A stretch of 64,000 nucleotides of DNA from Candidatus Gottesmanbacteria bacterium (GTDB lineage: Bacteria; Patescibacteriota; Microgenomatia; 2-02-FULL-39-11). Below, one piece after another: positions 3,684 through 20,314 of the stretch. A program made the position numbers and the translations under genes. Every line of letters begins with the position of its first letter. Positions within the stretch are counted from its first letter, which is position 1. The notes beneath the pieces are model-generated. The model made no database searches. It had not been told where the DNA came from and was given only the letters and a program-made list of their open reading frames with translations. The stretch is from the NCBI GenBank assembly GCA_016186795.1, contig JACPKY010000002.1, positions 26,593-90,592 of the forward strand. The letters are read 5' to 3'.

Positions 3684-4136
3684 ATGATCACCATTGATCA
3701 ACTCAAAAAACTTCGGGAAAAGACTTCAGCAGGAGTCATGGATTGCCGAAAAGCCCTGGAAGAGGCAAAAGGCGATGAGAAAAAGGCTGAGGAACTTATT
3801 AAACAGTGGGCGTCCCAAAAGGCCGAGAAGAAGGCTGGCCGCGAAACATCTGCAGGACTTGTCGAGTCATACGTTCATGCAGGAAAAGTGGGAGTCCTTG
3901 TTGAAGTTTTGTGCGAAACAGATTTTGTGGCGAGAACCGACAACTTCAAAAACCTTGCTCATGAGATCGCATTACAAATTGCCTCAATGAACCCGAAAGA
4001 TGTCAACTCGCTTATGAAACAGGAGTACATTCGAGATCCAAAACTGACAATTGAAAAATTGGTGAAAGAAACAATTGGGAAGTTAGGAGAAAATATTAGG
4101 ATTGGGAAATTCGCGCGGATACGGCTTGGGGAGTAA
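3684..4136 (+). CDS. tsf: elongation factor Ts, short (150 aa) form
   Basis: LKKLREKTSAGVMDCRKALEEA (UBA-like N-terminal domain) and ETDFVARTDNFKNLAHEIALQIA. Sits immediately after rpsB. Confidence 0.9.
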   Translation: MITIDQLKKLREKTSAGVMDCRKALEEAKGDEKKAEELIKQWASQKAEKKAGRETSAGLVESYVHAGKVGVLVEVLCETDFVARTDNFKNLAHEIALQIASMNPKDVNSLMKQEYIRDPKLTIEKLVKETIGKLGENIRIGKFARIRLGE

Positions 4137-5862
4137 CTGCAGCGTTTTTCGCATAGAGTCGGCTTTTGACAAACAACGGAGATCGTTCTTTCACTCCTTT
4201 TCTATTTTCTACCTCTTGGATCGTAAGGGTTCCTCCAGTAAGTTTTTCCACTTGTGATAAAAACATTCTTGCCCGGGCAACAAATCTCCGAGGGCAAAGA
4301 ATGACTCCATTTTCAATTCGCCCGGCAAGAAATTGGTTGACAAATGTTCCTGCAGATGCGGGATCTCTTCCCACTAGCCACATTCCATCCCCATCAAAGA
4401 TCTGTACCATACTCTTATTTTTGGGAGTGGTTCCAATTTCATCATGAGTTAAGCGGCGGTGATCAAACCTCACGGCATACCCAGCAGGGTCAGCTGTTAT
4501 CGGACTTCTGTATACACCAGTATCGATATCTGCAATGACTGCGATATTTGGTCTGCGAAAAACTTTGGCAAGTTGTCGAACGATGGCTCCTCCTTCTCCA
4601 ATCAAAGCATAATCATATCCTGCTGGGATGGTGATGACCGCACGTTCTTCATCCCACGCGCCACCAATATATTTTAAATATTCTGTAAGTCCCTCTCGGG
4701 TGAAAGGAATGGCAACCTCTTCAAAGTGCGGTTTATTCCCATTTGCCGCCCATCTTTGCTGTTCTACCTCAACAATGAAGTACTCAACACCAGCCTTACC
4801 TATCCGTTTTATCCATGCCTCGCTTGAGCCTTTCAGTGTTGAGTAATGACAGTGAGTAAACGATGGCGCTTCTGGTTTCGGAGGCGATGATTTGGCAGCA
4901 CCAATAGCTTCAACATCAATGTGTCGTGGAATAATAATATTTTTCTTCCCAGGGTCATCTTCTCCGAGTGCGCTTGCTAAGGAAATTGACTTTGAAGGCT
5001 CAGTTGGAATTGGCTTTTCTCCTTCTTCTCCTTCAAAAAGGTTGGTTCCTGGATCTTGAAAAGACCCAGTTGTTTCCGGCTGACCCATTTCTGCATGACC
5101 TTTTACAATGTGTTCAGTATCAAGTGCTTGGAGTGTTTCTTGGTGAAGAGATTCACCAGCCGTCTCTTGCGGAGAAGTTCGGAGAGTGATTGTTGAAAAT
5201 TCCAGAGGTGATTCTGGTTTTGCTTCGGAAGGTTGGTATGAAAGAGTGCGTAGGAAACCGAAAAAGGTATATCCTTCGCGATTTAGAACGTCGCCTTTCT
5301 TTTCGATTTTCGGCCGTTCAAATTCATCTTTTTTCCCAATGATTTTGAAAAAGTCTCCCCGTCGAATAGCATACGCTGCATATCTTCGGTTTTCTCGAAC
5401 TGGAATAATTATCCGATCGTCTTCTTTCGACACTCCAATTTCATAGATAAGTCGGTGGCGCTGAGGTTCGCGGTGCGGATGTTCTGGGTCGAAAACATAT
5501 TTTTCCGGCCAGTGATTAAAAAATTGTTCAGCAGATTCACGGACGAGTTGATCGACATTGGAAAAATTCGGCTCTACTCGGATATATTCACTGTCAGAAG
5601 GGTTTTCAGAAAAATCCATTGTGAGAGAGGTTGCAACACCTACTCCTTCACGGGCACTTCCTGGTCCTGGTAAATGTTCCGAGGCAGGATAATTCCCTCG
5701 ACGTTTCTTGGGTAACGCCCTGTTTGGATTATAGACGAGGGAGGAATCCGCAAAATTCATTTGAGGAAGCGTCTTTACAACGTAAGGAGGCTGTTGTAGA
5801 TGTTCAGGAGCACTTGGACTAGGGCGCATCACTGGATTTTGTGGAAGATTTTCAAACCCCAT
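4096..5862 (-). CDS. large uncharacterised protein (588 aa), second gene of a two-gene operon; C-terminal half contains repeated GxxG (KH-like) segments
   Basis: Uninterrupted 588-codon ORF. IGKAGV, LIGEGGAIVRQL and KLTGGTLTI look like KH-type GXXG loops. No Walker A motif. Overlaps the tsf 3' end convergently by 41 nt. Confidence 0.55.
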   Translation of the reverse strand: MGFENLPQNPVMRPSPSAPEHLQQPPYVVKTLPQMNFADSSLVYNPNRALPKKRRGNYPASEHLPGPGSAREGVGVATSLTMDFSENPSDSEYIRVEPNFSNVDQLVRESAEQFFNHWPEKYVFDPEHPHREPQRHRLIYEIGVSKEDDRIIIPVRENRRYAAYAIRRGDFFKIIGKKDEFERPKIEKKGDVLNREGYTFFGFLRTLSYQPSEAKPESPLEFSTITLRTSPQETAGESLHQETLQALDTEHIVKGHAEMGQPETTGSFQDPGTNLFEGEEGEKPIPTEPSKSISLASALGEDDPGKKNIIIPRHIDVEAIGAAKSSPPKPEAPSFTHCHYSTLKGSSEAWIKRIGKAGVEYFIVEVEQQRWAANGNKPHFEEVAIPFTREGLTEYLKYIGGAWDEERAVITIPAGYDYALIGEGGAIVRQLAKVFRRPNIAVIADIDTGVYRSPITADPAGYAVRFDHRRLTHDEIGTTPKNKSMVQIFDGDGMWLVGRDPASAGTFVNQFLAGRIENGVILCPRRFVARARMFLSQVEKLTGGTLTIQEVENRKGVKERSPLFVKSRLYAKNAAVTPQAVSARISQS

Positions 5863-5901
5863 ACTTCCAGACTAGCAAAGGTCGTACTGGCTTGTAAAGC
5901 A

Positions 5902-7785
5902 TTATCGCAGTTTCATTTTTTTTGCTTGGTCCTCTGTCAATGTAATGTATCCGAGAAACAGGTCATTGGTATCATTGTAGAACTGATTCCAGAAAGCCGT
6001 CGCCAGATTTTCATTCGGAAAAAATATTGTATCCAATCCTCCCGGCTGAACCCCTTTTGCCCTTTTACTAAAGAATCGTAGGAATGTTTCTGACCTTATA
6101 ACAAGAGGAACGTAATGTTTAAATTCCAGTGGTCCATTTCCTGCCCCAAACTGTTCATCTTGGACAAAGTACTCAAGCCCGAGATAATTTTCCAGCTCAA
6201 TAAGGGGCATGATGTAGCGACTCTCAAGTTCGGATAAATGATACGAAGAAGCCAACTCTTCAAGCCTTCTTCGATAGGGAGGAAGTGGTGCATCACTTCT
6301 CTTTTTTGGGTTTGTCACGTGTGTTTTTAATGCGCTGACAATATATCTTGCCCACGGTTCGTGTATTTGTGAGAGACTTTCTTGGTACACCAGTCCGAAT
6401 TTCGCAAGAAGAATTTTCTGCTCGATTTCAGCTAAGATTGGAAGGGCGGTAAGAAATGTTGTGAGTCTATTTGTTCTCATTTTATGGCGGACATCGGTAT
6501 AGGTAGTAAATACTCCCTGGTCAGCATAGTGTGCCAAATACAGAAGTTGACCGCCAGAAAGGCGAGTTTCTTCTAGTTTCCGATACGCATCGAAGAAATT
6601 ATCAGAGGTAAAGGGAAGGGTAGGGAGGTTAGCAAAGCGGTCAGCTGCTTTAATTCGTGCAGCTCTGCGAATGAGTCTTTTTGATGGTAACTCTTTGATC
6701 CGCTCAAGCCATCTGGCGCCGTCTTCTTTCCCGATTTTCGTGAGGGATTTAAGAATAATCCATTGTTCGCGATTTAGGTGAAGGGGCAAACTTGATCCCT
6801 CCATGAGAAGTGTCGTATCGGTTGGTATATATGATGCATCTTCTCGGTGAAAATTTGTTTCCAAATCCTCAGGAATTTCATGGGTAAATGCCAAAGCCAC
6901 ATCGTCTGCAGCTTCAGCAAGGCTTACCGGGTCATTTTCGAGATCATCCTCAATCATCGTCCAAAGATACCAGGCAGTTGCCAGATAATGGCAGTACCAG
7001 TGTTCGTGGGTTTTTCTTGTGTTGTCTCCTTTTTGTTTGAGACGGACAGCGTCACTTTCTTGGGCAAAGCGCATAAACTCTTTAACTTGTGACGTATTGA
7101 TGCCTCGATTTCGCATTCGGAAAAGAAGCTGTTGTTCAATTTCTCTGCGGAAAGTTTCTTCATTTTGGTAACCCAAAAATCGATGCCGGTCAATTGTTTT
7201 CTGAGATGACCAGGGGACTTGCGCTTCCATCATTTTTTCGGTAAAGGCTGCAAGGTGTTCGGAAACATGTGTCACATGGGCATAATCCCAGTACATATCC
7301 CTTAGAAGAAGCGTATCGAAATTCCATCCGATGAGTCGTCTCTGAGGATTATTGGTAACCAGAACTCCTTGTATGGGGAGTCCATAGCGAATATCATGCG
7401 AAGTTATTCCTGTTGATATTCGTTGTACAAAAGTATGCGGTGCGTGTTCTGGGAGAAATTCGTCACTGACGTATCTTTTAAGGGAGGGGAGACGGGAGGT
7501 AAGATGATGATTGGAGTTTATACGCAAAATATCTTTTGCCTTTGCCTCAAGTTCTGGTTTTTTTGGAAGTGGCTTATCTCGAGCTTCCAGAAGTGCCCGG
7601 AGTAAAAATGGGTCGAACCGCTCCAACCCCAGAATATCCTCGAGCGCATCACTTTGGGATGAGTGGATCCAATCGGCAATTCTTGCAACGCTTCGCTGTA
7701 CAGGATACGGTAAATACGAAAGTACTCCGGCCGTTCCTTGCAAATTGTCCGTATTTCTTCGGGGGTCATTTTCAGGAAATGCCAT
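5902..7785 (-). CDS. large uncharacterised protein (627 aa) with His/Asp-rich region suggestive of an HD-type metal-dependent phosphohydrolase fold
   Basis: Uninterrupted 627-codon ORF. HVTHVSEH ... THEHWYCHYLATAWY ... EDDLENDP ... ADDVALAFTHEIPED clusters. Sits 40 bp upstream of the 588-aa gene on the same strand. Confidence 0.55.
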   Translation of the reverse strand: MAFPENDPRRNTDNLQGTAGVLSYLPYPVQRSVARIADWIHSSQSDALEDILGLERFDPFLLRALLEARDKPLPKKPELEAKAKDILRINSNHHLTSRLPSLKRYVSDEFLPEHAPHTFVQRISTGITSHDIRYGLPIQGVLVTNNPQRRLIGWNFDTLLLRDMYWDYAHVTHVSEHLAAFTEKMMEAQVPWSSQKTIDRHRFLGYQNEETFRREIEQQLLFRMRNRGINTSQVKEFMRFAQESDAVRLKQKGDNTRKTHEHWYCHYLATAWYLWTMIEDDLENDPVSLAEAADDVALAFTHEIPEDLETNFHREDASYIPTDTTLLMEGSSLPLHLNREQWIILKSLTKIGKEDGARWLERIKELPSKRLIRRAARIKAADRFANLPTLPFTSDNFFDAYRKLEETRLSGGQLLYLAHYADQGVFTTYTDVRHKMRTNRLTTFLTALPILAEIEQKILLAKFGLVYQESLSQIHEPWARYIVSALKTHVTNPKKRSDAPLPPYRRRLEELASSYHLSELESRYIMPLIELENYLGLEYFVQDEQFGAGNGPLEFKHYVPLVIRSETFLRFFSKRAKGVQPGGLDTIFFPNENLATAFWNQFYNDTNDLFLGYITLTEDQAKKMKLR

Positions 7786-7947
7786 ACTGACGGCTTATAC
7801 CATAATAGAGAGCTTGGTGGCAACTTTTCTTGCGTGAGGGCGTGCATGGTATAATCCGGCAAACCAGTTTGCACATTTACAGAGTGAGACGAGGACGGAA
7901 TTTTTTTTCTATCGGGCGGCAAACAAAAAAGGGAAAAGGAGGCAAAT

Positions 7948-8328
7948 ATGCCAGCTCAAGATTGGGCGAGTATGACATTTTCGAATGAAAACATTCGATA
8001 CATCATACTCAATTTTCGTGTTTTGTGGGGCCTGATCATTGGAATTTATGCGATACTATTAACTGGCGGTGTCATTGGTTCAAGTCCAATTGCCAGTTGG
8101 GGCTTGAAATACCTCCAGTGGCACGGCCGAACCGTCGTAGAAAAACAAGACGACACAAAGTTGATACCGCTCAAAGCGTATCTCTTTAAAACTTTGTGGC
8201 TTCTTGTTTTTATATGGTATCGCATTCATGTTTTTCCACGGGGAGGTCGAATGGCTTTTTCGCTAACAGGAGGGCATCGGATTTGTTCTGCGCCGATGCC
8301 TTTTCTCCATGTCATTCTGAGCAAGTGA
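7948..8328 (+). CDS. small hypothetical membrane protein (126 aa)
   Basis: RBS aaggagg 7 nt upstream of ATG. Hydrophobic segments present. The C-terminal codons overlap dispersed-repeat copy A. Confidence 0.5.
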   Translation: MPAQDWASMTFSNENIRYIILNFRVLWGLIIGIYAILLTGGVIGSSPIASWGLKYLQWHGRTVVEKQDDTKLIPLKAYLFKTLWLLVFIWYRIHVFPRGGRMAFSLTGGHRICSAPMPFLHVILSK

Positions 8329-8469
8329 AGCTCGTCATCTTTTTACTCGCCCTTTTCCCCACCTCGTCTCACTCTCTCATTTTCCACTCACAATTGACAT
8401 CGGGCGATTCCCTGTTATAATCTTGTTATAACAAGGGTATTTATGAACAGTTTCTAATGGAGGTGAGGT

Positions 8470-8715
8470 ATGATTCAAAAAATTATTAAAGTAGGAAATA
8501 GCGTTGCGGTGACGTTGCCAAATACATTCATTCAAGATACTGGCTTGAAGGCTGGTGATACGATTGCGGTAGAAACGTATCCTCAAAGAAAAATGGTCCT
8601 TATCAAACCTACGTCGGAAAAGAATCAAATGAGCTTGTCTCCGGAGTTTTTCTCGTGGCTTGAGAAAATAAGCAAGAAATACGAAAAAACAATAAAAGCC
8701 TTGGCGCGTGTATGA
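8470..8715 (+). CDS. AbrB/MazE (SpoVT-AbrB) family antitoxin
   Basis: IIKVGNSVAVTLPNTFIQDTGLKAGDTIAVE swapped-hairpin motif. RBS ggaggtgagg. Overlaps the downstream toxin gene by 4 nt (ATGA). Confidence 0.75.
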   Translation: MIQKIIKVGNSVAVTLPNTFIQDTGLKAGDTIAVETYPQRKMVLIKPTSEKNQMSLSPEFFSWLEKISKKYEKTIKALARV

Positions 8716-9098
8716 TCTACCTCGAGATAGATGAAGTCATTGCGATCCATGAGAAGATGCTAGAAATTGGAGGAGGACGAGAGGGAATAAGGGATTTTAC
8801 CCTGATTCACTCGGCAGTTGCCAGGCCGAAGGCAACATTTGCTGGAAAGCTTCTGTATCCAACTATTTGGCTTCAAGCTGCAGCACTGATCCAATCACTT
8901 ATTCGCAATCATCCATTCGATGATGGCAATAAACGCACAGGATTTTTTTCTACATTACGGTTTCTGGATCTTAATGGGTACGATATCAACGCAACAGAAG
9001 CTGAGATTATTTCCTTTGCCAGAAATGTTGACGTAAAGCGTCTTCCGATTGAAGATATCGCCTCGTTTCTCAAAAAGCACGCGAAGCGGTTAAAATAG
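8712..9098 (+). CDS. doc: Doc/Fic family toxin (death-on-curing)
   Basis: Fic motif HPFDDGNKRTG. About 128 aa. Translationally coupled to the upstream antitoxin. Confidence 0.8.
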   Translation: MIYLEIDEVIAIHEKMLEIGGGREGIRDFTLIHSAVARPKATFAGKLLYPTIWLQAAALIQSLIRNHPFDDGNKRTGFFSTLRFLDLNGYDINATEAEIISFARNVDVKRLPIEDIASFLKKHAKRLK

Positions 9099-9121
9099 TG
9101 AATTTCTGGTAGAATATCTTT

Positions 9122-9358
9122 ATGGTGTGGGATTACGATGAAGCAAAACTGAAACGGACAAAAGCAGGGAAGATATTTCTTCTTGAGAGAAGTATCAATT
9201 ATGGACAGAGGAGCAGGAAGAAAATTCAACTCCGGGAAGTGAAAAAATATTGGGATAAATTACATCTTTTTCCATTACAGAAGCGTCTGTTTGAGCTTTT
9301 CATATGGGGAAAATACCGCTCCTCTCCAAAGAGCAAGAAATCATTTTGGATGAGGTAA
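9122..9358 (+). CDS. hypothetical small basic protein (78 aa)
   Basis: ORF only. Confidence 0.2.
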   Translation: MVWDYDEAKLKRTKAGKIFLLERSINYGQRSRKKIQLREVKKYWDKLHLFPLQKRLFELFIWGKYRSSPKSKKSFWMR

Positions 9359-9510
9359 GAAAACACCCATTCCTCCTTATGTCGTCATTCTTCGAGCAAG
9401 CGAAGCGAGTCGAGAAGTAGTTGATGAAATTGAGGACAACACATTCGACGGGTTGGTTTTCGGCTGATGCGCCGAATGTGTTGTCGCTCAGTCGTTCAGA
9501 GATCAAAGGG

Positions 9511-9756
9511 TTAGCTCGAAAGCCGCGCGAGCATGTTTTTTACATCTTGCGATTGGCGTGCGGGGACGCCCAACTGCTCGAGGCGCACTTTGGAAAGCCC
9601 CGCCAGTTGCTCAGGTGTTTGAGCGACTCTGTGAATTTGCGAAACTGCATGGTCGGTAAGTCCGGGTAGGAGTTTTCGGAGTTGATCATATCCAACCCGG
9701 TTATTTTTGTGCGCGGCATTTTGCTGATCGCGCACATCGAGTTGTGAACGTTGCAT
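9511..9756 (-). CDS. small hypothetical protein (81 aa) in GC-rich island, possible HhH-like DNA-binding
   Basis: Internal Met MQRSQL preceded by GGAGAG RBS (revcomp of ctctcc at 9765-9770). LLPGLTDHAVSQI resembles a helix-hairpin-helix motif. Confidence 0.45.
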   Translation of the reverse strand: MQRSQLDVRDQQNAAHKNNRVGYDQLRKLLPGLTDHAVSQIHRVAQTPEQLAGLSKVRLEQLGVPARQSQDVKNMLARLSS

Positions 9757-9791
9757 AGTTCTCTCCTTACAATTCAGACTTGGAATTTGAA

Positions 9792-10235
9792 CTACTTGCC
9801 GCCGAACGCCTGGTGGAGCGCATTGCGCGCCCCGAGGGCATCGAGCTGATTGACACCAAGTTGTTCGATTTGCTCGGCTGTAATCGCGGCGAGTGCGGTG
9901 CGCGTGTTTGCTTTTCGCCACAGCGCGCGGATTTGCGGCTCATCGAGGTATAGCGAGACGACTTTTTGCACCTCTTCAAACGGAACAATTTTCTCCGCCT
10001 TTCGAGGTGTCTCGACGGCAAAGATCGTAATTGTTTTTCCGTTCCAGGTACCCGAACCGCGTCTTCCCGAAAGCTGAATTATCCTGCCAGCGCTGTACTT
10101 TTTCCGTCCACGATATCCGGCGCTCTTCCCGAGCCATTCGGAGATGATAACGGTCGCCGATGCTCCATTGATTCGTACGATTTCGTAGTTTTGGGCATCA
10201 TCTCCTATGCCAATAATGAGTTGTTGTCCTTGCAT
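9792..10235 (-). CDS. hypothetical protein (147 aa) in GC-rich island
   Basis: RBS GGAGAG 7 nt upstream. Same strand and operon arrangement as its neighbours. Confidence 0.5.
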   Translation of the reverse strand: MQGQQLIIGIGDDAQNYEIVRINGASATVIISEWLGKSAGYRGRKKYSAGRIIQLSGRRGSGTWNGKTITIFAVETPRKAEKIVPFEEVQKVVSLYLDEPQIRALWRKANTRTALAAITAEQIEQLGVNQLDALGARNALHQAFGGK

Positions 10236-10250
10236 GATTTTCTCTCCGTG

Positions 10251-10493
10251 TCAAGCCCGGTCCGCGGCGTACACGTCCACCAAAACTTCCGCTGCACCGA
10301 ATTTGAGCTGCCCCATAAATCTCTTGAGTCGGAACTGGGTGCCGGCGCCCCAATTCGGCTCGCCAAGGAATCCGTCGCTCGTCCCCTCTATTTTCTGGAC
10401 TGTGACGACGGATCCAATTTTGATCGCCCCCGTGACCTGGACAAAGACCGCTGCCCCAGGTGATCCGAGAGCAATTAACATTGTGCCTGCCAT
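10251..10493 (-). CDS. hypothetical protein (80 aa) in GC-rich island
   Basis: Strong RBS AGGAGGAG immediately upstream of ATG. Confidence 0.5.
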   Translation of the reverse strand: MAGTMLIALGSPGAAVFVQVTGAIKIGSVVTVQKIEGTSDGFLGEPNWGAGTQFRLKRFMGQLKFGAAEVLVDVYAADRA

Positions 10494-10592
10494 GGCTCCT
10501 CCTATCTTATCGGCCAGACCCGAGTCTTCGGATCTAGCGAATTGACACTTTCGGTACGATCTGTTTAGGCTATGCTATTTTTCCTCCTTTCA

Positions 10593-10650
10593 ATTGACGG
10601 GTCAGTCATGGAAAGAAACATTCTTTCCACAATATACCCGTCAATTTTTC
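10593..10650. terminator. nested hairpin (attgacgggt ... acccgtcaat with inner ggaaaga/tctttcc) followed by T5
   Basis: 10-bp perfect inverted repeat 10593-10602/10636-10645 enclosing a 7-bp IR, followed by ttttt. Confidence 0.4.
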
Positions 10651-10659
10651 TGAACGACT

Positions 10660-10850
10660 TGTTAAAGTACTTTTTCATTCCAACACAAATCTCCACGCAG
10701 AACGTGGTTATGTAGTGGGCATGAAATTTTTCTTTATGGTCATAATCTTTTTTCCAGACAATCCCGAGCATGTCGAAGGATTATCTGGTTTTCTTAATTC
10801 CTAACGTATTCGAAACTAGGAAAAACAGGGGTAGGAAAATTAGAAAAGTG
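10660..10850. repeat. copy 1 of ~170-bp diverged repeat element; core hairpin CCACGCAGAACGTGG at 10694-10708
   Basis: Core 10681-10740 aligns with 11491-11560 (about 80% identical), with weaker similarity in flanks (ttcgaaact...aggg...agg). Confidence 0.6.
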
Positions 10851-11049
10851 ATGACGACACGATTGCGTCTGATAAATGGATATCACCACGTTCCTTTTTT
10901 CCCTTTCTTTTAGGACCCCCCCTTTGGCCCTATGTAGAAAGCCCAGTCATCCGACAAAGGCTAACTACCTACGAAACTAAATATCAAAGGATAGATGGAT
11001 AAGGACAAAATGTTGTCCAAGACCTTTTGGGAGTTGGACAACATTTCTG

Positions 11050-11244
11050 CTATTTTGGGAGTGGGAGCAGGACCCACCCAACTGCGCTTATCAGGACAAT
11101 TGTGAGTACAACGACTACGGTCATCCTGATAAGGCGACCGTGTGAGAACCATAGCCAGAACCATTTGCCGGGATCCTCACCGTACACGACTTCTCCAGGA
11201 TCCCCGGAGACATGTGCACCTTGGGTTTGTGGATGCTTTGCCAT
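11050..11244 (-). CDS. small single-pass membrane protein (64 aa)
   Basis: Internal Met preceded by GGAGGAAAT RBS. The C-terminal MTVVVVLTIVLISAVGWVLLPL segment is a TM helix. Confidence 0.45.
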   Translation of the reverse strand: MAKHPQTQGAHVSGDPGEVVYGEDPGKWFWLWFSHGRLIRMTVVVVLTIVLISAVGWVLLPLPK

Positions 11245-11469
11245 ATTTCCTCCTTGAGAATTGAGTCTTTTCACTTGATCGATATCAAGTGAAAAGATTT
11301 ATGGCGAACTTGCGAGATTTTTTTCGATCGATTTTGTGCTTCTGTCCTCCTCCTTTCGGGTAAGTGATTGAATTTCCAATCCAAGCTAGCTAGGTTGATA
11401 CAAAATGCCCAAAATATATCAACAACATCTTGTGCCAACCTAGCTTTCCCGAAGGATTTTCTATCCTTT

Positions 11470-11640
11470 GACTTGTCAAAGAGCATTTTCCATTCCACCG
11501 CAAATCACCACGCAACCGTGGTTATGAGGCAGAATGAAATGTATTTTTCATCTGATCGTATTGTCAAAATCTAATGATGTTTTTTCAGTCTCGAAATTCT
11601 TCGAAACTCAAAGAACAAGGGAAAGGTGATGAGAAGAGGT
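11470..11640. repeat. copy 2 of ~170-bp diverged repeat element; core hairpin CCACGCAACCGTGG at 11508-11521
   Basis: Aligns to copy 1. Direct orientation, about 810 bp apart. Confidence 0.6.
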
Positions 11641-11737
11641 GCCGTGAGGGCGGAGACTGCGCGGGGCGCAGAATCTATCGCGCATGCGCGACAGTCTCCG
11701 CCCTTTTGGCGTCATCACTTTACCCTCATTCTTTGGG

Positions 11738-13084
11738 TCACGGCCCGTGTCCCGGTTGCTGCCCGCTTTGGCCTGCGGCGGGCGGATGCCGGCGCTGGTT
11801 GAGCCGTTGCTCCATCTCCTCTAGCCGGTGCTCGATTTCTTCTCGAGCGATATCGGTTGCCTGCTGACCACCAAAGGTGGTGAAGATTACGACCACGAGC
11901 CAAATCGCCGCCAGTAGCAAGCAACCTGCCCACAGATATGGTAATAAAACCCATTTGTCTGTGGCTGTTACGAAAATGAGGCAACCCAAAGCCAAATACA
12001 TCGGAAACTCGATCCAGTCGGGGATTTTCTCCCGAATGAACCGAGTGTGCCGCCAAAGCTCGCGGAGAAGCCAGATCACGATCCACCCACCGATCAGAAT
12101 GACGATGCCCCAAAAGACATATGGGAGCAGATCTGCGACTTGTTTTGCCGCGTTGGCTGCGGTGCCGACTACCGGATTGATTTCTTTCGAATCGAAAGAG
12201 CCGCCGAAGCAGCTCCCCTGAACTTTCGTTTCATTCGAAAGAACCTTTAGATCAACCCAACCGGTTCCTGCCTTCAGATCGTATGAGACGCTGGTTCCGT
12301 CCGACGCAAGGTAAGTTCCCTTGCAGTCGGGAATTGGTGTTCCCGTGGGGATGGGCGTGTTGGTAGAGGGAACCGGCGTGTTGCTCGGCGGAGGCGTGTT
12401 GCTCGGCGGAGGCGTGCGCGTCGGCGGTATCGACGTTCGCGTCGGCGGGGGGGTCCGACTTGGACCGAACCGAAGGGCGTTGGCCTTAGCCTGGGCGGTT
12501 TGTTCTACGGCCGCGGCTTGTGCCTGGGCGACCATTTCGGTCGCTTTGGCGGCCACCGTCGCACCCCTCTGTACTGCGTTGGCCGTCGCCGTTGGCGGCG
12601 GCGTGGCCGTGCAACGGGGGCCTCCCTGGAGTAGGCACGGCTGGTTGGCACGAAGATTCGCCAACCGCTTGAAGTCGCCCACTGATTGGGCTATCCAAGT
12701 CGACCCATCGGCCATCGCGACCGACTCAACCCTCCCCGCGGGTTGAGAGTCGGCGACGACGCCGAGCATAATTAGCCCGCACAAGCAAAGCGCGAGAAGG
12801 CCTATAATTATTGCTACCCCCCAGCGCCCTAGGGCGTCGATGTGCCCCGTGTGCAGTAGCACATGAGGCTGCTCGGCGTGTCCTCCGTGTCCGTCGGCTG
12901 CGTGCGGTGCGGCTCGTCCGTGCTCGGCGGCGTGCTCGGGCGGCGGATCATCGTCAGTCTCTTCGTCTTCGCCACGGCGGCGGAAACCGGAGAGGAGGCG
13001 CCAGGCCAAAAAAATTACCACCGCCGCTGCGATGACCTGCCATGGAACTGGCAGGTCATTTAGGAAGGAGAGAATTCCTTCCAT
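11738..13084 (-). CDS. GC-rich polytopic membrane protein with Pro/Thr-rich tandem-repeat linker (about 448 aa)
   Basis: RBS-like GAAGGAAG lies before the second ATG (MEGILS). There are at least 5 hydrophobic helices. PPPTRTSIPPTRTPPPSNTPPPSNTPVPSTNTPIPTGTPIP linker. His/Asp-rich N-terminal tail. Confidence 0.55.
   Translation of the reverse strand: MEGILSFLNDLPVPWQVIAAAVVIFLAWRLLSGFRRRGEDEETDDDPPPEHAAEHGRAAPHAADGHGGHAEQPHVLLHTGHIDALGRWGVAIIIGLLALCLCGLIMLGVVADSQPAGRVESVAMADGSTWIAQSVGDFKRLANLRANQPCLLQGGPRCTATPPPTATANAVQRGATVAAKATEMVAQAQAAAVEQTAQAKANALRFGPSRTPPPTRTSIPPTRTPPPSNTPPPSNTPVPSTNTPIPTGTPIPDCKGTYLASDGTSVSYDLKAGTGWVDLKVLSNETKVQGSCFGGSFDSKEINPVVGTAANAAKQVADLLPYVFWGIVILIGGWIVIWLLRELWRHTRFIREKIPDWIEFPMYLALGCLIFVTATDKWVLLPYLWAGCLLLAAIWLVVVIFTTFGGQQATDIAREEIEHRLEEMEQRLNQRRHPPAAGQSGQQPGHGP
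12350..12450. repeat. degenerate 18-21-bp tandem repeats (ggcgtgttgctcggcggag x about 5) encoding PPPSNTP repeats on the minus strand
   Basis: Direct reading: ggcgtgttgctcggcggag ggcgtgttgctcggcggag gcgtgcgcgtcggcgg... Confidence 0.7.
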
Positions 13085-13269
13085 GGTTTTTCTTCCTTCT
13101 GACCCGCACTGGGTCATGCCTCTTTCGAGGATGACGGGGTGCGAATCACTTTACTTCTTTTTTTGATTTTGATAGACGTACTGCGCGACGGAGGCAAGTA
13201 TTTTGTCCCCATGGAGCAGTACTCTATCATAGATTAAATAATTTTTATCACCTTTCCCTATGTTAATGT

Positions 13270-13296
13270 GCAAAAAAAACTCCCTTGTGGGGAGTT
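13270..13296 (-). terminator. rho-independent terminator downstream of the phd-relE operon
   Basis: The minus strand reads cacacgaaCTCCCcacaaGGGAGtttttttt. Confidence 0.5.
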
Positions 13297-13448
13297 CGTG
13301 TGCGCAATGTTTCCTTATTCCTACGCTCCCGAACTCCTCGTTCGGATAACAAAAGAAATAGTAAGGATGATATTGGCGTCTTTGACAATGTTCATCGTAT
13401 AGAGAGAGTTTATATCATATCCTATAGTTGCGTGTCAAGTACGGGAAT

Positions 13449-13700
13449 CTACTTGTAGATTTCTCTGCGGTGGCCAATAGAGAGAATAATTATTGTGTTT
13501 CCCTTTATATCAAAGACTACTCGATAATCTCCTATGCGGTATCTATACATACCAATATCTGAATTTATAAGTTTTTCAGCAAAAAATAGAGGAGCCTTTG
13601 AGGAAGCAAAAAATTCGAGCTTATCGCTTATTCGTCTTTGGGTAGGTTTAGGAAGTCTTCGGAATTCTTTGAGCGAATGAGAATTGAATTCTATGACCAT
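13449..13700 (-). CDS. relE: RelE/ParE family toxin
   Basis: About 83 aa. YRIGDYRVVFDIKGNTIIILSIGHRREIY is a typical RelE/ParE C-terminus. Lies immediately downstream of the antitoxin. Confidence 0.8.
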   Translation of the reverse strand: MVIEFNSHSLKEFRRLPKPTQRRISDKLEFFASSKAPLFFAEKLINSDIGMYRYRIGDYRVVFDIKGNTIIILSIGHRREIYK

Positions 13701-13982
13701 TTATAATCCAAGTTGTTTTTTTACCTCTTCCAAAGAGATAGTTTTTGTATCCTTCCGACTCTCTGCGATACGTGCGCGAAAGGTAGGAGAAGAGAGTGCT
13801 TCTATATCCTCTATAATACTTTGCCACATTTCATTTGGGATGAGTACGCCCAGTGGTTGGCCATTTTTCATGACGCGGTAAAACGAGGATGTTTTTTTTG
13901 CTTTTTCAAATAGTTTGGTCAAGCCCGCCTGGGCTTTCTGGATGTTGGTAAATTTTTCGTCACTGATAAGTTGTTGTATCAT
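13701..13982 (-). CDS. phd: Phd/YefM family antitoxin
   Basis: 93 aa. Abuts relE with no gap. Layout is the usual antitoxin-first arrangement, with a Phd-like N-terminal fold. Confidence 0.75.
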   Translation of the reverse strand: MIQQLISDEKFTNIQKAQAGLTKLFEKAKKTSSFYRVMKNGQPLGVLIPNEMWQSIIEDIEALSSPTFRARIAESRKDTKTISLEEVKKQLGL

Positions 13983-14041
13983 AATTACATGATTATATAA
14001 TTATATAATACTTCTGTAATATATGTCAAGTTTAAGGTGGA

Positions 14042-16432
14042 TTATCCCTTTTGAGGCGGATGATTTTGTGATATCTGAGGTTTGCGTGGGGGCTGTTGTG
14101 GAAGGCCAGTCAGTTTCGGCTTCAGAGGATTTTGGGCTATAGGATTGGGTTTTGGCTGTGGTGGTTGCGGTTTTTGACCAAGAGATGGTTTTAGTTGTGG
14201 TGTCTCTGCAACTGGTGCCTTAACTGGTGGCGCTTTTGGTTCCCACAGCTTACTATCCGGCTTTTTGGTGTAGCGTTCCTGGGAAAGTCGGAGAATCTTT
14301 TCTTTATTTTGGTTAATTGACCGTGGCAATGGCAAAGTTAAGGCATAAAAGGGAAGCGAGGTAAGGTTATCTATTGCCAATTTAATAATGACCTGATATG
14401 CACCCAGTGCAACTAAATCTTCTTCTTTGTACCACTGTCCGAACTCTCTTGATAGGGCATGGGCATCTTGTGCACCAATCACAAATGAGATAAGAGTACC
14501 CGCATTGCCAAAAATAGCTTTCTGGACTGTTTCATCGACCTGGCCGATATATTGATTGGCAAGGATAAGATCAAGGCGATATTTCCGCGCCTCAGAGAGA
14601 ATTTTGATAAAAGAAGTCGTGGCAAAGTTTTGGAACTCATCAACATAGAGGTAGAAATCGCGTCGCTGCGTCTCCATGACATTGACTCTGTTCATCGCAG
14701 CCAGCTGGATTTTGGTGATAAACATAGCTCCAAGTAGGGCCGCATTATCTTCTCCCAATTTTCCCTGGGCAAGGTTTAATATGAGGATTTTCCCCTGATC
14801 CATAATATCCTCTAGATCAATCGTTGATTGCGGGTGTCCGATAATTTGCCGGATTGTTGGGGATTGGACAAATTGTCCAACTTTATTTTGGATAGGGGCA
14901 ATCGCTTCACTTTTAAGCCTCGGGTGCATTTTCTCAAATTCGTTATGCCAGAAGTTTTGCAATATCCTATCCGGGACTTTCGTCAGCAGCTGTTGACGAA
15001 AATTTTGATCGGCAAGTAAATCAAGCGCCATAGGAAGTGTAGCATTGGGATACTCAAGAAGGGTGAGAACGACATTTCGAAGGATATACTCAAGTCGCGG
15101 TCCCCATGAATAGGCGTAGAGTTTGGAAAAAATTGACACAATTCCTGAGGCGACCAATTCCTTGTGAACAGGGTTTTTTATCTCCAAAGGATTTATCCAA
15201 AAAGGATGCTGTTGATCAAACGGCTCAAGGTAAATAACATCATTGAGCCGGTACGATGGAATATAGTTAAGAAGAATTTCGGATAAATCTCCGTGAGGAT
15301 CAATGACCGCTAGTCCTTCTCTATTTCGCATATCGTTTATGGCCATGTTTGCGATAAGAGTTGATTTACCGGTTCCCGTTTTTCCGATGATGTACATGTG
15401 TTTGCGCCTGTCCGGCCGTTTTATCCCAAAGGTCATCATCTGGTTTTTAAATTCAGATTTGGCGAAGAAATTTATTTCTTTTTTCTCTTCATCGGTAAGA
15501 TTTAAAGAAACCGGCAGATTTTGCGGCGGTTCTCCATGCATGTGTCTGCCCCAGGCGATATTCCGAATGCCAGCAAGAAGCATCGTTGGTGGATGCCAAA
15601 TGGTTGCCAGCTCAGCAGTATTCAAGATTTGGTTTCGCGGATAATGGCTTTTTTCCCGTTTGACAATACGGTTGAAGATCACTCGTTTCCAAAAAAATCT
15701 GGGTCTTCGAAGGACGAGCCGATTCCCTTCTCCCATGGCAAATGCGCCGAAAGCGCCTGCGACATTGGCCATAAGAGAAAGTGCATTGCTATGGGTATCG
15801 GCGCCAATAAGAAGTCGGATGTATGTTCGATATCCAGATTGATTTATTTTTTCCTCAATAAGTTGGGCGTGGGGGAACTGCTTGGTTTTCGTCGGTGCAG
15901 TAGGTGTTGGATCTGGAATTCCCCGTTCAATCATCCGGGCAGTATTTCCTTGCCAGTTAAAGTGCGGTGGTTCAATAATAATTTGAATAAGTCCGGATTG
16001 TTGAGGCGTAAATTTCGAAAGGACCCCAAGAATTGATGAGAGTGGATCAAGGTCTTTAAATTCCTCATGCCGTTTGATGGGGTAGTAGTATGGTGCTGCA
16101 AGCTGAAGATTGCCAACAGCCATATAGGGATTTTTGGCAATCTGCGGAACATAGTCATGTATTGGGGTAATAAGGAGTTTGTGGTACTGGGAGACCAGCT
16201 GACTTTCCATAAACGTCTGGAAGGATTTTGGCACAACAACACAAAAATGGATGGTCTGGTTGATATTGACGATTTCAAAAGAAAGTGTGCGGACTTTGAT
16301 CCACAGCCTCTTCCAATGGGGGATATGACCGCCGGGGAAGAGTGCTGAAAATACTTGCTGCATCGATGCGGGAGTCTCCTCGGCAGTTTTGGGGGAACGG
16401 ATTTCCAAGATGACTTTCTCTTCCTTTGCCAT
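14042..16432 (-). CDS. VirD4/TraG/TraD-like type IV coupling-protein-family ATPase (HerA/FtsK superfamily, DUF87-like) with Pro-rich C-terminal tail
   Basis: Walker A GKTGTGKST. Walker B region YLYVDEFQNF. ILANQYIGQ. C-terminal PKAPPVKAPV...PQPPQPKPNP low-complexity tail. Confidence 0.7.
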   Translation of the reverse strand: MAKEEKVILEIRSPKTAEETPASMQQVFSALFPGGHIPHWKRLWIKVRTLSFEIVNINQTIHFCVVVPKSFQTFMESQLVSQYHKLLITPIHDYVPQIAKNPYMAVGNLQLAAPYYYPIKRHEEFKDLDPLSSILGVLSKFTPQQSGLIQIIIEPPHFNWQGNTARMIERGIPDPTPTAPTKTKQFPHAQLIEEKINQSGYRTYIRLLIGADTHSNALSLMANVAGAFGAFAMGEGNRLVLRRPRFFWKRVIFNRIVKREKSHYPRNQILNTAELATIWHPPTMLLAGIRNIAWGRHMHGEPPQNLPVSLNLTDEEKKEINFFAKSEFKNQMMTFGIKRPDRRKHMYIIGKTGTGKSTLIANMAINDMRNREGLAVIDPHGDLSEILLNYIPSYRLNDVIYLEPFDQQHPFWINPLEIKNPVHKELVASGIVSIFSKLYAYSWGPRLEYILRNVVLTLLEYPNATLPMALDLLADQNFRQQLLTKVPDRILQNFWHNEFEKMHPRLKSEAIAPIQNKVGQFVQSPTIRQIIGHPQSTIDLEDIMDQGKILILNLAQGKLGEDNAALLGAMFITKIQLAAMNRVNVMETQRRDFYLYVDEFQNFATTSFIKILSEARKYRLDLILANQYIGQVDETVQKAIFGNAGTLISFVIGAQDAHALSREFGQWYKEEDLVALGAYQVIIKLAIDNLTSLPFYALTLPLPRSINQNKEKILRLSQERYTKKPDSKLWEPKAPPVKAPVAETPQLKPSLGQKPQPPQPKPNPIAQNPLKPKLTGLPQQPPRKPQISQNHPPQKG

Positions 16433-16700
16433 AGATGTTTGTAGTATACGGTAAAGAGGGGAAAGTATAAAGGGAAAATAGATAAAAAGGTGTGTATCCT
16501 ATCGTTTGACCGTAGTAAATTGTTATGGTAGGATCCTGCCACCTGTCTACTTTTTTTGGCACATTGAAATTGCGGATTTGAAATTGTGGATTTATTTTAA
16601 GAAACGTTCTTTTTTTGGCCGTACGTACCATTTCGAAAGAAAACCAAATCCAGATCAACAGGGTTTTCTTTCCATATTGAGGTAGAGGAGGGTAATAATC

Positions 16701-16967
16701 ATGCCACAACGCGTTCCAGATCCAAAACTGGTAGAGAAGGTAGAACGCCTTCTTCGTCACTTTCCGGGCCCACCGATGATACATTCCAAAGTGGAATTTC
16801 ATGTTCCCAAAGATGACGCCGAATTATCTGTAGCGCTTGACACGATCAGGCAAAGATACGGTCTCGATTGGGGACATAATCGTGTGTGGTTTGAAACATC
16901 GCTGTTTGATGCGAACTTCCGGAAACAACCTGACACAGGTCAGTCATATATCGTGTGGAAAAAGTAA
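16701..16967 (+). CDS. hypothetical protein (88 aa)
   Basis: Strong RBS gaggagggtaataatcATG. Confidence 0.45.
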   Translation: MPQRVPDPKLVEKVERLLRHFPGPPMIHSKVEFHVPKDDAELSVALDTIRQRYGLDWGHNRVWFETSLFDANFRKQPDTGQSYIVWKK

Positions 16968-17011
16968 GGAGAAAAAACCAAAAAAAATCTAATACAATCC
17001 GCAGATCAGGT

Positions 17012-17065
17012 TTGTGCACATGGCACAGGTAGACTCGCGTTTCCGCGATTATCTTTGAGTCTACC
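17012..17065. repeat. 17-bp perfect inverted repeat (atggcacaggtagactc / gagtctacctgtgccat) with 20-nt loop, followed by a T-rich run
   Basis: Read directly. Sits just 3' of the gene at 16701-16967. Confidence 0.6.
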
Positions 17066-17364
17066 TGTGCCATTATTATTATTGATTCTGGGCGGGTTTT
17101 GGTTTTTTGCTTGCCCGTCGTCCGGGCCCGTTTTTACCAAACCAAGCTCCACATGTATACGACTCCTCTTTAATATTGTCATTCTGATCCTGAGCGAAGT
17201 CGAAGGAGAAGAATCCCCTCTATACTATAGGATTGACTTTTTAACTGTCCCCACGTATACTTTCACACTATTACGCAAGGATTTCCGTCAAAAGTTTAAT
17301 TGCAAACTTTACAACGGAAATTTTATTGCGGATTGCACATTAATAATCCTTGAGAACAAACCCT

Positions 17365-17420
17365 TCGAATTGGGAACAGTGGAAGTACAAAAAACTTATT
17401 TCCAGCGTTCCCAATTCGAA
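17365..17420. repeat. 14-bp perfect inverted repeat (ttcgaattgggaac / gttcccaattcgaa)
   Basis: Read directly. Lies 20 nt upstream of the RBS of the 17441 gene. Confidence 0.55.
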
Positions 17421-17440
17421 ATAGGGGAGGGGAAAATATC

Positions 17441-17821
17441 ATGTCAAAAGGAGATACGAACATGTCAGCAACAAGAACAACAGGTGGCGCCGAGAGGAAT
17501 CGAGCTTTTGCTCGTCTAAAAGCCGCCGCGCGCGTCATGAGCTTAGGCATGAATCATATGCCGATTCCCTGCGACGATTGTGAGTTCCGTCGCTGGAAAC
17601 GCATGTTTCCGAGGATTGCCTACGCATCTCTTGACGAAGTGAGAAATGATTTGGTCCTTGTAGACGGGACACGGCGAGGGTTGCGTGATGGATTTAGGAC
17701 TTATGAAATCAAAAGTCCTCGTACGTCGCCGGCTAAGGGAATCACTCTCCACTCATGTCTGTCGCGTTTTATTTTTGGCAGACAACGGAATCAGCGACGG
17801 TTTTTGGCGCCACGGAGGTGA
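17441..17821 (+). CDS. hypothetical basic protein (126 aa), GC-elevated
   Basis: RBS aggggagggg upstream. A Cys pair, CDDCEF. Confidence 0.35.
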   Translation: MSKGDTNMSATRTTGGAERNRAFARLKAAARVMSLGMNHMPIPCDDCEFRRWKRMFPRIAYASLDEVRNDLVLVDGTRRGLRDGFRTYEIKSPRTSPAKGITLHSCLSRFIFGRQRNQRRFLAPRR

Positions 17822-18106
17822 GATGCGCCGATCATTAAAAATAACCGTCAGCCCATTTCGCTCAACGGTGAAATCCAACGGCGCAGCACGGGTGCCCCGC
17901 AAAAAGCCTCGCCATTTTCGCTGGGCATGGTGGCAGGTATTGCGCGACCCAATGGCGCTTCTTGCGTTGAATCACCGGCGACGAATCCGGGTGCTCGCTA
18001 GGCGTTCATAATAAAAAATATATCAGATTGGATTTACCGGAAATCCCCCTCCCTTTCGGTAAAAAGCCGATCTGATAATCTGTATTCTCAAGGAAGGAGA
18101 AATTTC

Positions 18107-18337
18107 ATGAACGGTACAGCACAACAAAGACTCAATCAGCTTGCACGCGCGATGAACACTCAACTCCAGAGTGGTTTCAAAGTCAAACTGGACAAAGAGT
18201 GGCTCGCGCGATACCGCGGACACCCCTACAGCGATCCGAAGGAAGTGGAAAGCGACTTCCGGGTGATCGGATGGAAAGGTACTAAGGTGCACGATCCGCA
18301 CAAATCTGGCTGGATGCAATTTACGCCAACAAGCTGA
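18107..18337 (+). CDS. hypothetical small protein (76 aa)
   Basis: RBS aaggaaggag upstream. Confidence 0.45.
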   Translation: MNGTAQQRLNQLARAMNTQLQSGFKVKLDKEWLARYRGHPYSDPKEVESDFRVIGWKGTKVHDPHKSGWMQFTPTS

Positions 18338-18818
18338 ACAACGCGTTTCATAGAGGGTAGCGTGCGACGCGATTAGAATGACTGTTTATTCAGTCAAACC
18401 AATCCCGTTGTCATGCTACTCTCTATAATTTCAATTTTCTTCCACTTACCATTCTTTTTTAACTTCTATGTTATTCTTATCCCCATTTGATCACCTTATT
18501 ATTCAAGAATCAATTCCATCGTTTTGACTCTTTATAGGTCCTATGGTAGCATCGCCCCAAGTTGGAAAAAGCATTCGCGTTTTTTCCAAACGCACATTAA
18601 CCACGCCACATCTTAGCACTCGCCTTACCTACTATTCGTAGCGCGGCTCGTGCTGCGTTTGTTGGCGGGTCTGCATCGCAAATGCAATGCATTTGCTCTT
18701 TGACATGTGAGAGAAAATTCTCCTTTCAAGGAGCAAGAACGATAGATTGATGATTCGTCGTCACTCTTTCGTTCTTGCTCTACCGGCCGAAAAAGTGTAT
18801 TCAAGAGAGGAGGCAACC

Positions 18819-19157
18819 ATGGCCCGTTCCAAAAGCAAAAATGTTCGGACGGTCCGATCCTACATTCCAGTTGCAAAGGGCAACTGGGTTCAGGTTTGGA
18901 TGTTAGAAAAAGGGGACTACGTTGTCCAGCGAGCTGATGAATTTCAGTCGCGCCGCTTGGGCATGAAAATCCTCTTTGCGGGTGGAAAAATCCAGTGTTC
19001 GAAAGGAAGGGTTATTTCCAAAGATCAAAGAAAGGGCATGGATCGCCCGCAGCTTTTGAGACCCGAAGACTGGGTTTTCAAAGTTCCGTTTAAGGACATG
19101 GCAGTTCATCCTGCCATGTACAATTACCCACCTTCGGGCGCGTTTTCGACTTCATAA
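18819..19157 (+). CDS. hypothetical protein (112 aa)
   Basis: RBS gagaggagg before the internal Met MARSKSK. A 12-bp IR sits in its 5' UTR. Confidence 0.45.
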   Translation: MARSKSKNVRTVRSYIPVAKGNWVQVWMLEKGDYVVQRADEFQSRRLGMKILFAGGKIQCSKGRVISKDQRKGMDRPQLLRPEDWVFKVPFKDMAVHPAMYNYPPSGAFSTS

Positions 19158-19169
19158 GGAGGCGACGAT

Positions 19170-19397
19170 ATGGATCCGAATCTAAAGAAACTTCTCGAGG
19201 TGGCGAATCAGACGCCAAACCAGCTCGAGTTCCCAACGGGAGCGGAGTTCGCTTATTGGCTTGCCGGTTTGGACAATACACGCTTCCTCACAAGTGCCAA
19301 CCTTCGTGCGGCCTTAGAAAGATCCGGTTGGGTACAAAACCCAAATCCCAAACCTGGGTTTGAGCAATGGCATGCTCCTTTTTCAATGGCACGCTGA
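19170..19397 (+). CDS. hypothetical small protein (75 aa)
   Basis: RBS aaggagg. Translationally coupled to the upstream gene. Confidence 0.45.
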   Translation: MDPNLKKLLEVANQTPNQLEFPTGAEFAYWLAGLDNTRFLTSANLRAALERSGWVQNPNPKPGFEQWHAPFSMAR

Positions 19398-20298: not shown

Positions 20299-20314
20299 AG
20301 CGAATTTAATTCAA

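Follow-up and report, generated by a model that had tools for sequence, protein, structure and literature searches.

Homologous hairpin-rich spacers before two unrelated gene units in an orphan-gene island of a Candidatus Gottesmanbacteria bacterium

The 64,000-nucleotide (nt) stretch of contig JACPKY010000002.1 analysed here, referred to as the window, comes from an uncultured groundwater Candidatus Gottesmanbacteria bacterium of the candidate phyla radiation; the 147-amino-acid (aa) protein encoded at 9792-10235 is identical to NCBI protein HYW55_01260. This study concerns two intergenic regions of the window that resemble one another and that precede, respectively, a 64-aa membrane-protein gene and an operon for proteins of 80, 147 and 81 aa. 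Locally, every gene is encoded on the minus strand, with no plus-strand genes nearby, and those flanking both spacers are all orphans. An initial annotation had described two diverged copies of a discrete element of about 170 bp at this locus, built around a CCACG/CGTGG hairpin. The two regions are homologous over their full length, and this homology very probably reflects duplication of the whole region. The genes, the two copies and their hairpins (H1 to H4, with folding energies, minimum free energies (MFE) where so marked, and z scores) are as follows.

11738-13117, minus strand: 459-aa membrane-protein gene, stop codon at 11738-11740
11245-11737, minus strand: copy 2, the whole intergenic region from the 459-aa stop codon to the 64-aa ATG (global alignment, collinear blastn blocks)
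11605-11735, minus strand: H1 of copy 2, a giant terminator-type hairpin starting directly after the 459-aa stop codon (MFE -77.7 kcal/mol, z -8.7)
11538-11567, minus strand: sigma-70-like promoter candidate TTGACA-18-TACATT, in copy 2 only, its -10 element abutting the 5' foot of H2 (10/12 consensus matches)
11488-11539, minus strand: H2 of copy 2, an imperfect hairpin with its inner stem at 11507-11522 (91-nt context, -30.4 kcal/mol, z -4.4)
11388-11445, minus strand: H3 of copy 2, 20-nt arms (-27.1 kcal/mol on the minus versus -19.8 kcal/mol on the plus strand)
11348-11357, minus strand: GAAAGGAGGA box of copy 2, a ribosome-binding-site look-alike without a start codon (10/10 match to copy 1)
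11266-11297, minus strand: H4 of copy 2, a perfect palindrome with 14-nt arms before the ribosome-binding site of the 64-aa gene (folding)
11050-11244, minus strand: 64-aa membrane-protein gene, ATG at 11244
11008-11046, minus strand: terminator-like hairpin directly after the 64-aa gene and upstream of copy 1 (13-nt perfect arms)
10494-10935, minus strand: copy 1, the homologous part of the spacer 10494-11049 before the 80/147/81-aa operon (blastn, global alignment)
10815-10932, minus strand: H1 of copy 1, diverged, its GC-rich inner stem gone (MFE -39.8 kcal/mol, z -2.8)
10673-10726, minus strand: H2 of copy 1, an imperfect hairpin with its inner stem at 10693-10707 (96-nt context, -22.8 kcal/mol, z -3.4)
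10592-10646, minus strand: H3 of copy 1, 26-nt arms, followed by T5 on the plus strand (-30.3 kcal/mol on the minus versus -27.2 kcal/mol on the plus strand)
10582-10591, minus strand: GAAAGGAGGA box of copy 1, without a start codon (secondary identity peak, 25/40)
10512-10538, minus strand: H4 of copy 1, a short hairpin before the ribosome-binding site of the 80-aa gene (alignment, folding)
10251-10493 (80 aa, ATG at 10493), 9792-10235 (147 aa) and 9511-9756 (81 aa), minus strand: the 80/147/81-aa operon

The best-conserved part of the two regions is a core repeat (10656-10735 against 11470-11548) that aligns over 81 columns at 77.8% identity (blastn, E about 3e-11), in line with the 80% first estimated. 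A weaker similarity proposed for a further 100 bp or so (ttcgaaact..aggg..agg) also proved real, as a second block (10788-10848 against 11579-11638) of 65.6% identity (blastn, E 0.004-0.08) that is collinear with the core, the blocks being offset by 790 and 813 nt; this block corresponds to the 3' arm of H1. Exactly two sites in the 64 kb, 10693-10712 and 11508-11526, carry the motif CCACGCA-N1-4-CGTGGTTATG, against 0.00 expected from 100 shuffles (scan pattern CCACGCAN{1,4}CGTGGTTATG). As first described, the repeat lies some distance upstream of minus-strand starts, about 200 nt from the ATG at 10493 and about 264 nt from that at 11244.

The homology extends well beyond a discrete element. 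On the gene strand, the collinear blocks obtained in a sensitive comparison begin just past the upstream gene's stop codon and extend as far as the downstream gene's ribosome-binding site, and the intergenic regions 11245-11737 and 10494-10935 are homologous over their entire lengths. When 11242-11745 and 10491-10935 are aligned globally, the score is 123.5, against -15.1 +/- 14.1 for shuffled sequences, with identity peaking at 34/40 in the H2 core, at about 24/40 over 11605-11642 and at about 25/40 round the GAAAGGAGGA box. The supposed element of about 170 bp is thus part of intergenic regions of 440-490 nt that include the terminator-type hairpin of the upstream gene. Folding reveals an identical four-hairpin layout, H1-H2-H3-H4, on the minus strand of both copies, which persists even where the sequences can no longer be aligned, and the whole leaders fold with z scores of -5.6 and -6.3. 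A decayed start of the 64-aa gene after copy 1 (10562-10597 against 11228-11264) was considered and rejected, the full-length collinear alignment pairing that block with the box at 11348-11357 instead.

H1 is predicted to act as an intrinsic terminator on the gene strand, being a stable hairpin after a stop codon and followed by a U-rich tract; its arms are purine-rich on the 5' side and U/C-rich on the 3' side. The diverged H1 of copy 1 is recovered by the H1 profile (nhmmer, E 1e-23) and folds to -39.8 kcal/mol on the minus strand versus -23.8 kcal/mol on the plus strand. Most of the hairpins likewise fold better as minus-strand RNA, with the exception of H1 in copy 2 (-77.3 kcal/mol on the minus versus -84.2 kcal/mol on the plus strand).

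Comparison with a second locus bears directly on H1. Among 5.8 billion proteins, the 459-aa protein has a single homologue, P0002 (367 aa, 40% identity over 38% of the query), whose gene occupies positions 371-1474 of L010, a 3.3-kb Logan contig from a different sequencing project. The DNA similarity between L010 and the window extends past the stop codon through H1 (67.6% over 173 nt), and L010 carries the same giant hairpin directly after the stop codon of the homologue (-60.9 kcal/mol, z -5.2). The outer stems of copy 2 and L010 comprise 19 pairs, with three compensatory changes from G-C to A-U, one G-U change and none broken; a three-way structural alignment including copy 1 was misaligned by MAFFT and was not used. 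All three hairpins have a UCAUCAC-type stem followed by a U/C-rich tail (CUUUCCCUUGUUCUUUG in copy 2, UUUUCUAAUUUUCCU... in copy 1 and CUUUCCCUUGUUUUUU in L010). Since L010 keeps the hairpin, its compensatory pairs and its tail, H1 is a conserved structure tied to the 3' end of the 459-aa gene, most simply an intrinsic terminator, and it is likely to function either as such or as a stabilising 3' hairpin. L010 lacks H2, its next gene beginning about 40 nt after H1, and H2 and the rest of the leader are therefore specific to the lineage of the window.

H1 shares several features with intrinsic (Rho-independent) terminators that have a paired A-tract and U-tract, namely its position directly after the stop codon, a stem that closes just before the U/C-rich tail, an upstream A-rich stretch able to pair with that tail, and its retention with compensatory changes beside the homologous gene in L010. 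It differs from them in its unusual length of about 120-130 nt, in its composite stem and in the placement of the GC-rich inner stem about 25-30 nt from the U-rich tract. The 3' arm (UCAUCACCUUUCC...; 11610-11633 and 10815-10855 on the minus strand, 1565-1596 in L010) resembles the 3' end of bacterial 16S ribosomal RNA, GAUCACCUCCUUUC, and the 5' arm is Shine-Dalgarno-like; both likenesses probably reflect the purine/pyrimidine composition of the arms. Elsewhere in the window, the hairpin at 2623-2656 is built on arms CAAAGAAATGAGGG similar to the 5' arm of H1. Membership of H1 in a dispersed repeat family with CAAAGAAATGAGGG-like arms was rejected, as only this hairpin has such an arm and AGTTTCGAA is not enriched.

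H2 is an imperfect hairpin of about 52 nt, larger than the 5-bp CCACG/CGTGG stem recognised initially. Both copies contain that inner hairpin, with loop lengths of 5 and 4 nt, and no bases are better conserved than those of the palindrome with its flanks (CAAATC, TTATG). RNA folding, which had been suggested as a check, gives the minus-strand z scores listed above for the two H2 contexts; on the plus strand they are -2.5 for copy 2 and -2.7 for copy 1. For H2 itself, the minus and plus strands fold to -23.5 versus -15.2 kcal/mol in copy 2 and to -16.1 versus -15.1 kcal/mol in copy 1. The consensus contains 18 pairs, 14 of them invariant; three show one-sided changes accommodated by G-U pairing on the minus strand, and one shows a compensatory change from A-U to G-C. 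All four variable pairs (4/4) remain paired on the minus strand, whereas the three G-U pairs would be A-C mismatches on the plus strand. Since all the variable pairs hold on the minus strand, a sense-strand RNA structure is favoured for H2. An intrinsic terminator on the gene strand is a poor description of it, as the minus-strand tails (UGAAAAAGUACUUUAA, AAUGGAAAAUGCUCUU) are A-rich and the U-tract lies on the plus strand only, where the tails TTTTTCTTTAT (copy 1) and GTATTTTTCAT (copy 2) both contain a T-run.

The remaining leader is conserved more in layout than in letters. The two H3 hairpins occupy equivalent positions but have little sequence in common. The hairpin and T5 that had been reported beside copy 1 are confirmed at 10592-10651 and correspond to H3 there, with arms at 10592-10617 and 10621-10646 that are 81% complementary and TTTTT next on the plus strand. 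AAGACTC is common to H4 of both copies. The GAAAGGAGGA box, a strong ribosome-binding-site look-alike, is kept in each leader, and the real ribosome-binding site follows about 100 nt downstream; one guess is that it serves as a standby or decoy site.

No sigma-70 promoter with 16-18-nt spacing is conserved between the copies, as judged by the sigma-70 consensus, from which promoters of the candidate phyla radiation may depart. At the place of the copy-2 candidate, copy 1 has indels and no site with at least 9/12 matches. A start 7 nt past the copy-2 candidate would lie in the 5' arm of H2 and would put the inner hairpin at the 5' extreme of the RNA. Terminator-like hairpins precede both leaders (H1 in copy 2; the 11008-11046 hairpin and H1 in copy 1), and each unit therefore plausibly needs its own start signals. 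On the plus strand, no promoter is conserved or strong and none in copy 2 exceeds 7/12 matches; a weak TTGACA-18-TAGGCT lies at 10542-10571. Among the options first raised, a duplicated promoter module, widened to a promoter or leader module, comes closest.

The view that the repeat is non-coding holds. Two minus-strand open reading frames (ORFs) cross the copies, one of 75 aa at 11271-11498 and one of 68 aa at 10565-10771; they share no BLASTP similarity even at E <= 100 and neither has a Pfam match above threshold, and the region is accordingly regarded as non-coding. Short minus-strand ORFs of 9-11 codons are also present at 11525-11551 (MKNTFHSAS*, copy 2) and 10708-10743 (MTIKKNFMPTT*, copy 1), each terminated by the same aligned UAA, which directly adjoins the inner CCACG stem (CAUAA|CCACG). 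Lacking ribosome-binding sites, these short ORFs are probably due to chance.

Searches for further copies were made at several scales. An nhmmer profile built from both copies matched nothing else in the window or in about 16 kb of extra flanks from the same genome, and within about 80 kb in total the repeat is, as first supposed, confined to the island. The pattern CAAATCNCCACGN{3,6}CGTGGTTAT had no matches in IMG/VR or in GTDB genomes and two in JGI metagenomes, which are taken as chance because they lie inside high-GC coding DNA without flanking similarity; a looser 17-base pattern gave 12 IMG/VR matches, all rejected as lying in unrelated phage coding regions. Nothing was found by blastn of 10480-11745 against plasmid and phage collections, nor by locus searches of GTDB genomes and IMG/VR with the 459-aa/P0002 alignment. 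Wherever seven Logan contigs (L001-L007) cover the region, they match the window at 100% identity and consequently provide no comparative signal. At gathering thresholds, Rfam recovers only tRNA-Leu in the whole window, and a permissive scan of 10400-11800 returns only generic hairpin matches to microRNA models (15-30 bits against thresholds of 50-168). A literature search found nothing relevant to the repeat. With no further copy in the searched collections and no core in L010, the proposed family of repeated cis-regulatory RNAs is not established, and the search of related genomes for copies or covariation was negative for the core.

The two spacers lie within about 15 kb of mostly orphan genes (about 4100-19700) flanked by tsf (3684-4136) and frr (19735-20298). 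These two genes are normally near neighbours, and the stretch between them looks like a variable island or mobile-element remnant. Its other recognisable genes, and further hairpin-bearing spacers of the window, are listed below.

14042-16432, island: VirD4/TrwB-like ATPase gene
13449-13982, island: Phd/ParE toxin-antitoxin pair
8470-9098, island: MazE/Doc toxin-antitoxin pair
800-1000, 1640-1800, 2500-2680, 12990-13150, 16950-17150, 18300-18480, 18640-18820 and 20290-20450: other hairpin spacers (sliding-window fold)

According to a sliding-window fold of the whole window, many other spacers also contain long hairpins of very high stability; 1665-1770 holds one of about 105 nt, and 2500-2680 holds three or four. 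The 64-aa protein has a long hydrophilic N-terminus and a C-terminal membrane helix. Protein searches for relatives of the 147-aa and 64-aa proteins found none, and the 80-aa protein has only low-complexity matches, to repeat proteins. No similarity between the 64-aa unit and the operon was detected by BLASTP, tblastx or blastn, and their genes are therefore not regarded as paralogues. The 147-aa and 81-aa proteins resemble each other over about 57 aa at the C-terminus (26% identity, E 8e-4). A single-sequence AlphaFold model predicts a confident five-helix bundle for residues 80-147 of the 147-aa protein (predicted local distance difference test, pLDDT, 83-96), whose nearest folds are SAM-like and (HhH)2 nucleic-acid-binding domains, all non-significant (E >= 0.37); this modelled likeness of the shared segment is a lead rather than evidence. 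The 459-aa protein contains a P/T/A-rich linker, which raises the GC content of 12-13 kb to 62.6%, compared with about 42% in the background. A tyrosine recombinase (Phage_integrase domains; L026, 16610-17536) is encoded about 5.5-6.4 kb past the 3' end of the window, a distance too great to link it to the island.

We propose that a single segmental duplication, probably in tandem and with a unit of about 800 nt, copied a whole intergenic module. This module would consist of the H1 of the upstream gene, followed by a hairpin-rich leader (H2, H3, the start-less GGAGG box and H4) that reaches to the next ribosome-binding site, and its copies would now stand before unrelated units, the 64-aa membrane-protein gene and the 80/147/81-aa operon. 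H2, the slowest-evolving part of the module, would work as an RNA stem-loop in the minus-strand transcript. There it could act as a 5'-proximal or intercistronic determinant of stability or processing, or as a structure that masks its own GGAG/GGTG box and so controls ribosome access, and the two transcription units might thereby share post-transcriptional handling. The account as a whole, a one-off duplication of a terminator-plus-leader module in which H2 is a probable sense-strand RNA stem-loop, is favoured tentatively, at slightly less than an even chance. A function for H2 as a sense-strand RNA element is itself possible and rather doubtful.

Known stabiliser stem-loops provide a partial precedent. 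The ompA 5' stem-loop and the malE-malF intercistronic hairpins of the repetitive extragenic palindromic (REP) type resemble H2 as stem-loops in non-coding parts of a sense transcript that lack a sense-strand U-tail. H2 is further like such 5'-leader and intercistronic elements in being duplicated before two units, and the copy-2 promoter candidate would yield an RNA whose very 5' end is formed by the inner hairpin. It differs in having no sequence relationship to them and only two copies.

Several points weigh against the proposed account. Only two copies exist, and H2 covariation is accordingly minimal; being drawn from two sequences with a consensus fold that drops non-working pairs, it is suggestive. 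Copy 1 of H2 folds equally well on both strands. The sole related locus, L010, lacks H2. No promoter is conserved, and transcription from the copy-2 candidate would begin within the 5' arm of H2. Gene conversion, instead of selection, could account for the higher identity of H2. Finally, hairpin-rich spacers are a trait of this genome, so that structuredness is not special here. The asymmetry of the H2 pairs could also stem from a transcription-linked C-to-T bias on the coding strand.

These points are shared in large part with the idea that the module is a neutral relic, in which the duplication is real, the hairpins have no role and H2 owes its conservation to stochastic variation or later gene conversion. 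The two copies without counterparts elsewhere, an L010 that does without H2, the missing conserved promoter, the hairpin-dense spacers that are the norm in the window and the modest gap between block identities of 78% and 66% all fit a relic. It is nevertheless somewhat unlikely, given that all substitutions in the predicted H2 pairs keep gene-strand pairing, that H1 of copy 1, though diverged, can still fold and is 16 kcal/mol more stable on the gene strand, and that the four-hairpin layout is retained beyond alignable sequence. A quite different role is suggested by the plus-strand tails of H2 (TTTTTCTTTAT, GTATTTTTCAT), each with a T-run where the minus-strand tails are A-rich, and by T5 after H3 of copy 1: H2, together with this H3, might stop antisense transcription or end small antisense RNAs, as in type I toxin-antitoxin systems. 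The weak TTGACA-18-TAGGCT at 10542-10571 and the small membrane protein encoded by the 64-aa gene accord with this. Such loci, for example zorO-orzO, tisB-istR and hok-sok, have long structured 5' untranslated regions; the present locus resembles them in a small membrane-protein gene behind a long structured leader with a start-less GGAGG box, and resembles tandem type I loci in a second diverged leader copy nearby. A small membrane protein and plus-strand hairpins with T-runs are thus present, but no credible plus-strand promoter was found, neither a conserved or strong one in general nor one above 7/12 in copy 2, and no antisense or divergent small-RNA promoter is detectable here. H2 of copy 2 is moreover weaker by 8 kcal/mol on the plus strand, because three pairs become A-C mismatches, and there are no plus-strand genes nearby. 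The 64-aa protein, with its long hydrophilic N-terminus, C-terminal membrane helix and lack of homologues, is not a recognised toxin, and the second leader fronts an unrelated operon. We therefore consider plus-strand terminators improbable. About as improbable is the more ambitious proposal that H2, the start-less GGAGG box and the flanking hairpins form a lineage-specific cis-regulatory leader RNA of candidate-phyla-radiation bacteria, which would co-regulate the two orphan units, for example as a translational or stability switch or as the sense half of a type-I-toxin-like module; the island that holds these units adjoins the VirD4-like ATPase.

At the DNA level, the palindrome CCACG-N-CGTGG could be an operator, as the initial annotation had suggested, bound by a regulator of both units that is perhaps encoded in the operon. 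Palindrome and flanks are indeed the best-conserved bases, and the segment shared by the 147-aa and 81-aa proteins (E 8e-4) is modelled as a bundle near nucleic-acid-binding folds. The idea is weakened by a half-site spacing that differs between the copies (5 nt versus 4 nt), a change that a dimeric DNA-binding protein would tolerate poorly. The fold matches are non-significant, (HhH)2 domains bind DNA without sequence specificity, and a Pfam scan of the proteins encoded nearby recovered neither a helix-turn-helix nor another regulator domain; with sites 200-260 nt from the start codons and no conserved promoter beside them, an operator is very unlikely. Still harder to sustain is a translational attenuator or small ORF, for which it can be said that a short ORF ends at the stem foot, that the 3' arm of H2 carries GGAG/GGTG and then a start codon opening an ORF of 37-75 codons through H3 (in copy 2, GGUGGA-N7-AUG starts a 71-codon frame), and that a 3-nt in-frame indel falls within the block LFDKSKDRKSFG / YFNKS-FRKIDG. 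The two long ORFs nonetheless have neither BLASTP similarity nor a credible Pfam match, the frame is common to only 2/4 conserved patches, as chance allows, the short ORFs lack ribosome-binding sites, and ORFs of 40-80 codons are ubiquitous locally (71 in 6.5 kb). Least credible of all is a mobile or recombination element, whether a miniature inverted-repeat transposable element (MITE) or REP-type repeat, an attC-like site, or the att-like repeats flanking a nested insertion that had been envisaged. The setting, an island of same-strand orphans with toxin-antitoxin pairs and hairpins after genes, speaks for one, and there is a likeness to integron attC sites in that small same-strand orphan genes end in imperfect hairpins of 60-140 nt and the region contains toxin-antitoxin cassettes. 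The spacer hairpins differ from attC sites in lacking R''/R' core sites, with no RYYYAAC or GTTRRRY in the arms of H1 or H2, in being absent from the other genes of the island and in having no IntI gene there. MITE and REP-type repeats are dispersed in many copies with defined ends; here about 80 kb contains only two copies, each lying within 440-490 nt of further homology, and terminal inverted repeats and target duplications are absent. As ends of an insertion, the copies are only 78% identical and enclose just the 64-aa gene, and no integrase is adjacent, the nearest tyrosine recombinase lying more than 5 kb past the end of the window.

Duplication of a terminator-plus-leader spacer, our preferred reading, gives the present findings a mostly corrective value, in that the proposed element is the best-preserved patch of a duplicated spacer. 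Because nothing similar was found elsewhere, the repeat is a local, lineage-restricted curiosity and not a new class of element. Spacers dense in hairpins are frequent in this genome, and like matches elsewhere should not be over-read. To our knowledge, almost nothing is known of gene regulation in the candidate phyla radiation. If H2 works as a leader element, it would be among very few cis-acting RNA signals described for these bacteria, and it would mark two orphan gene sets as co-regulated.

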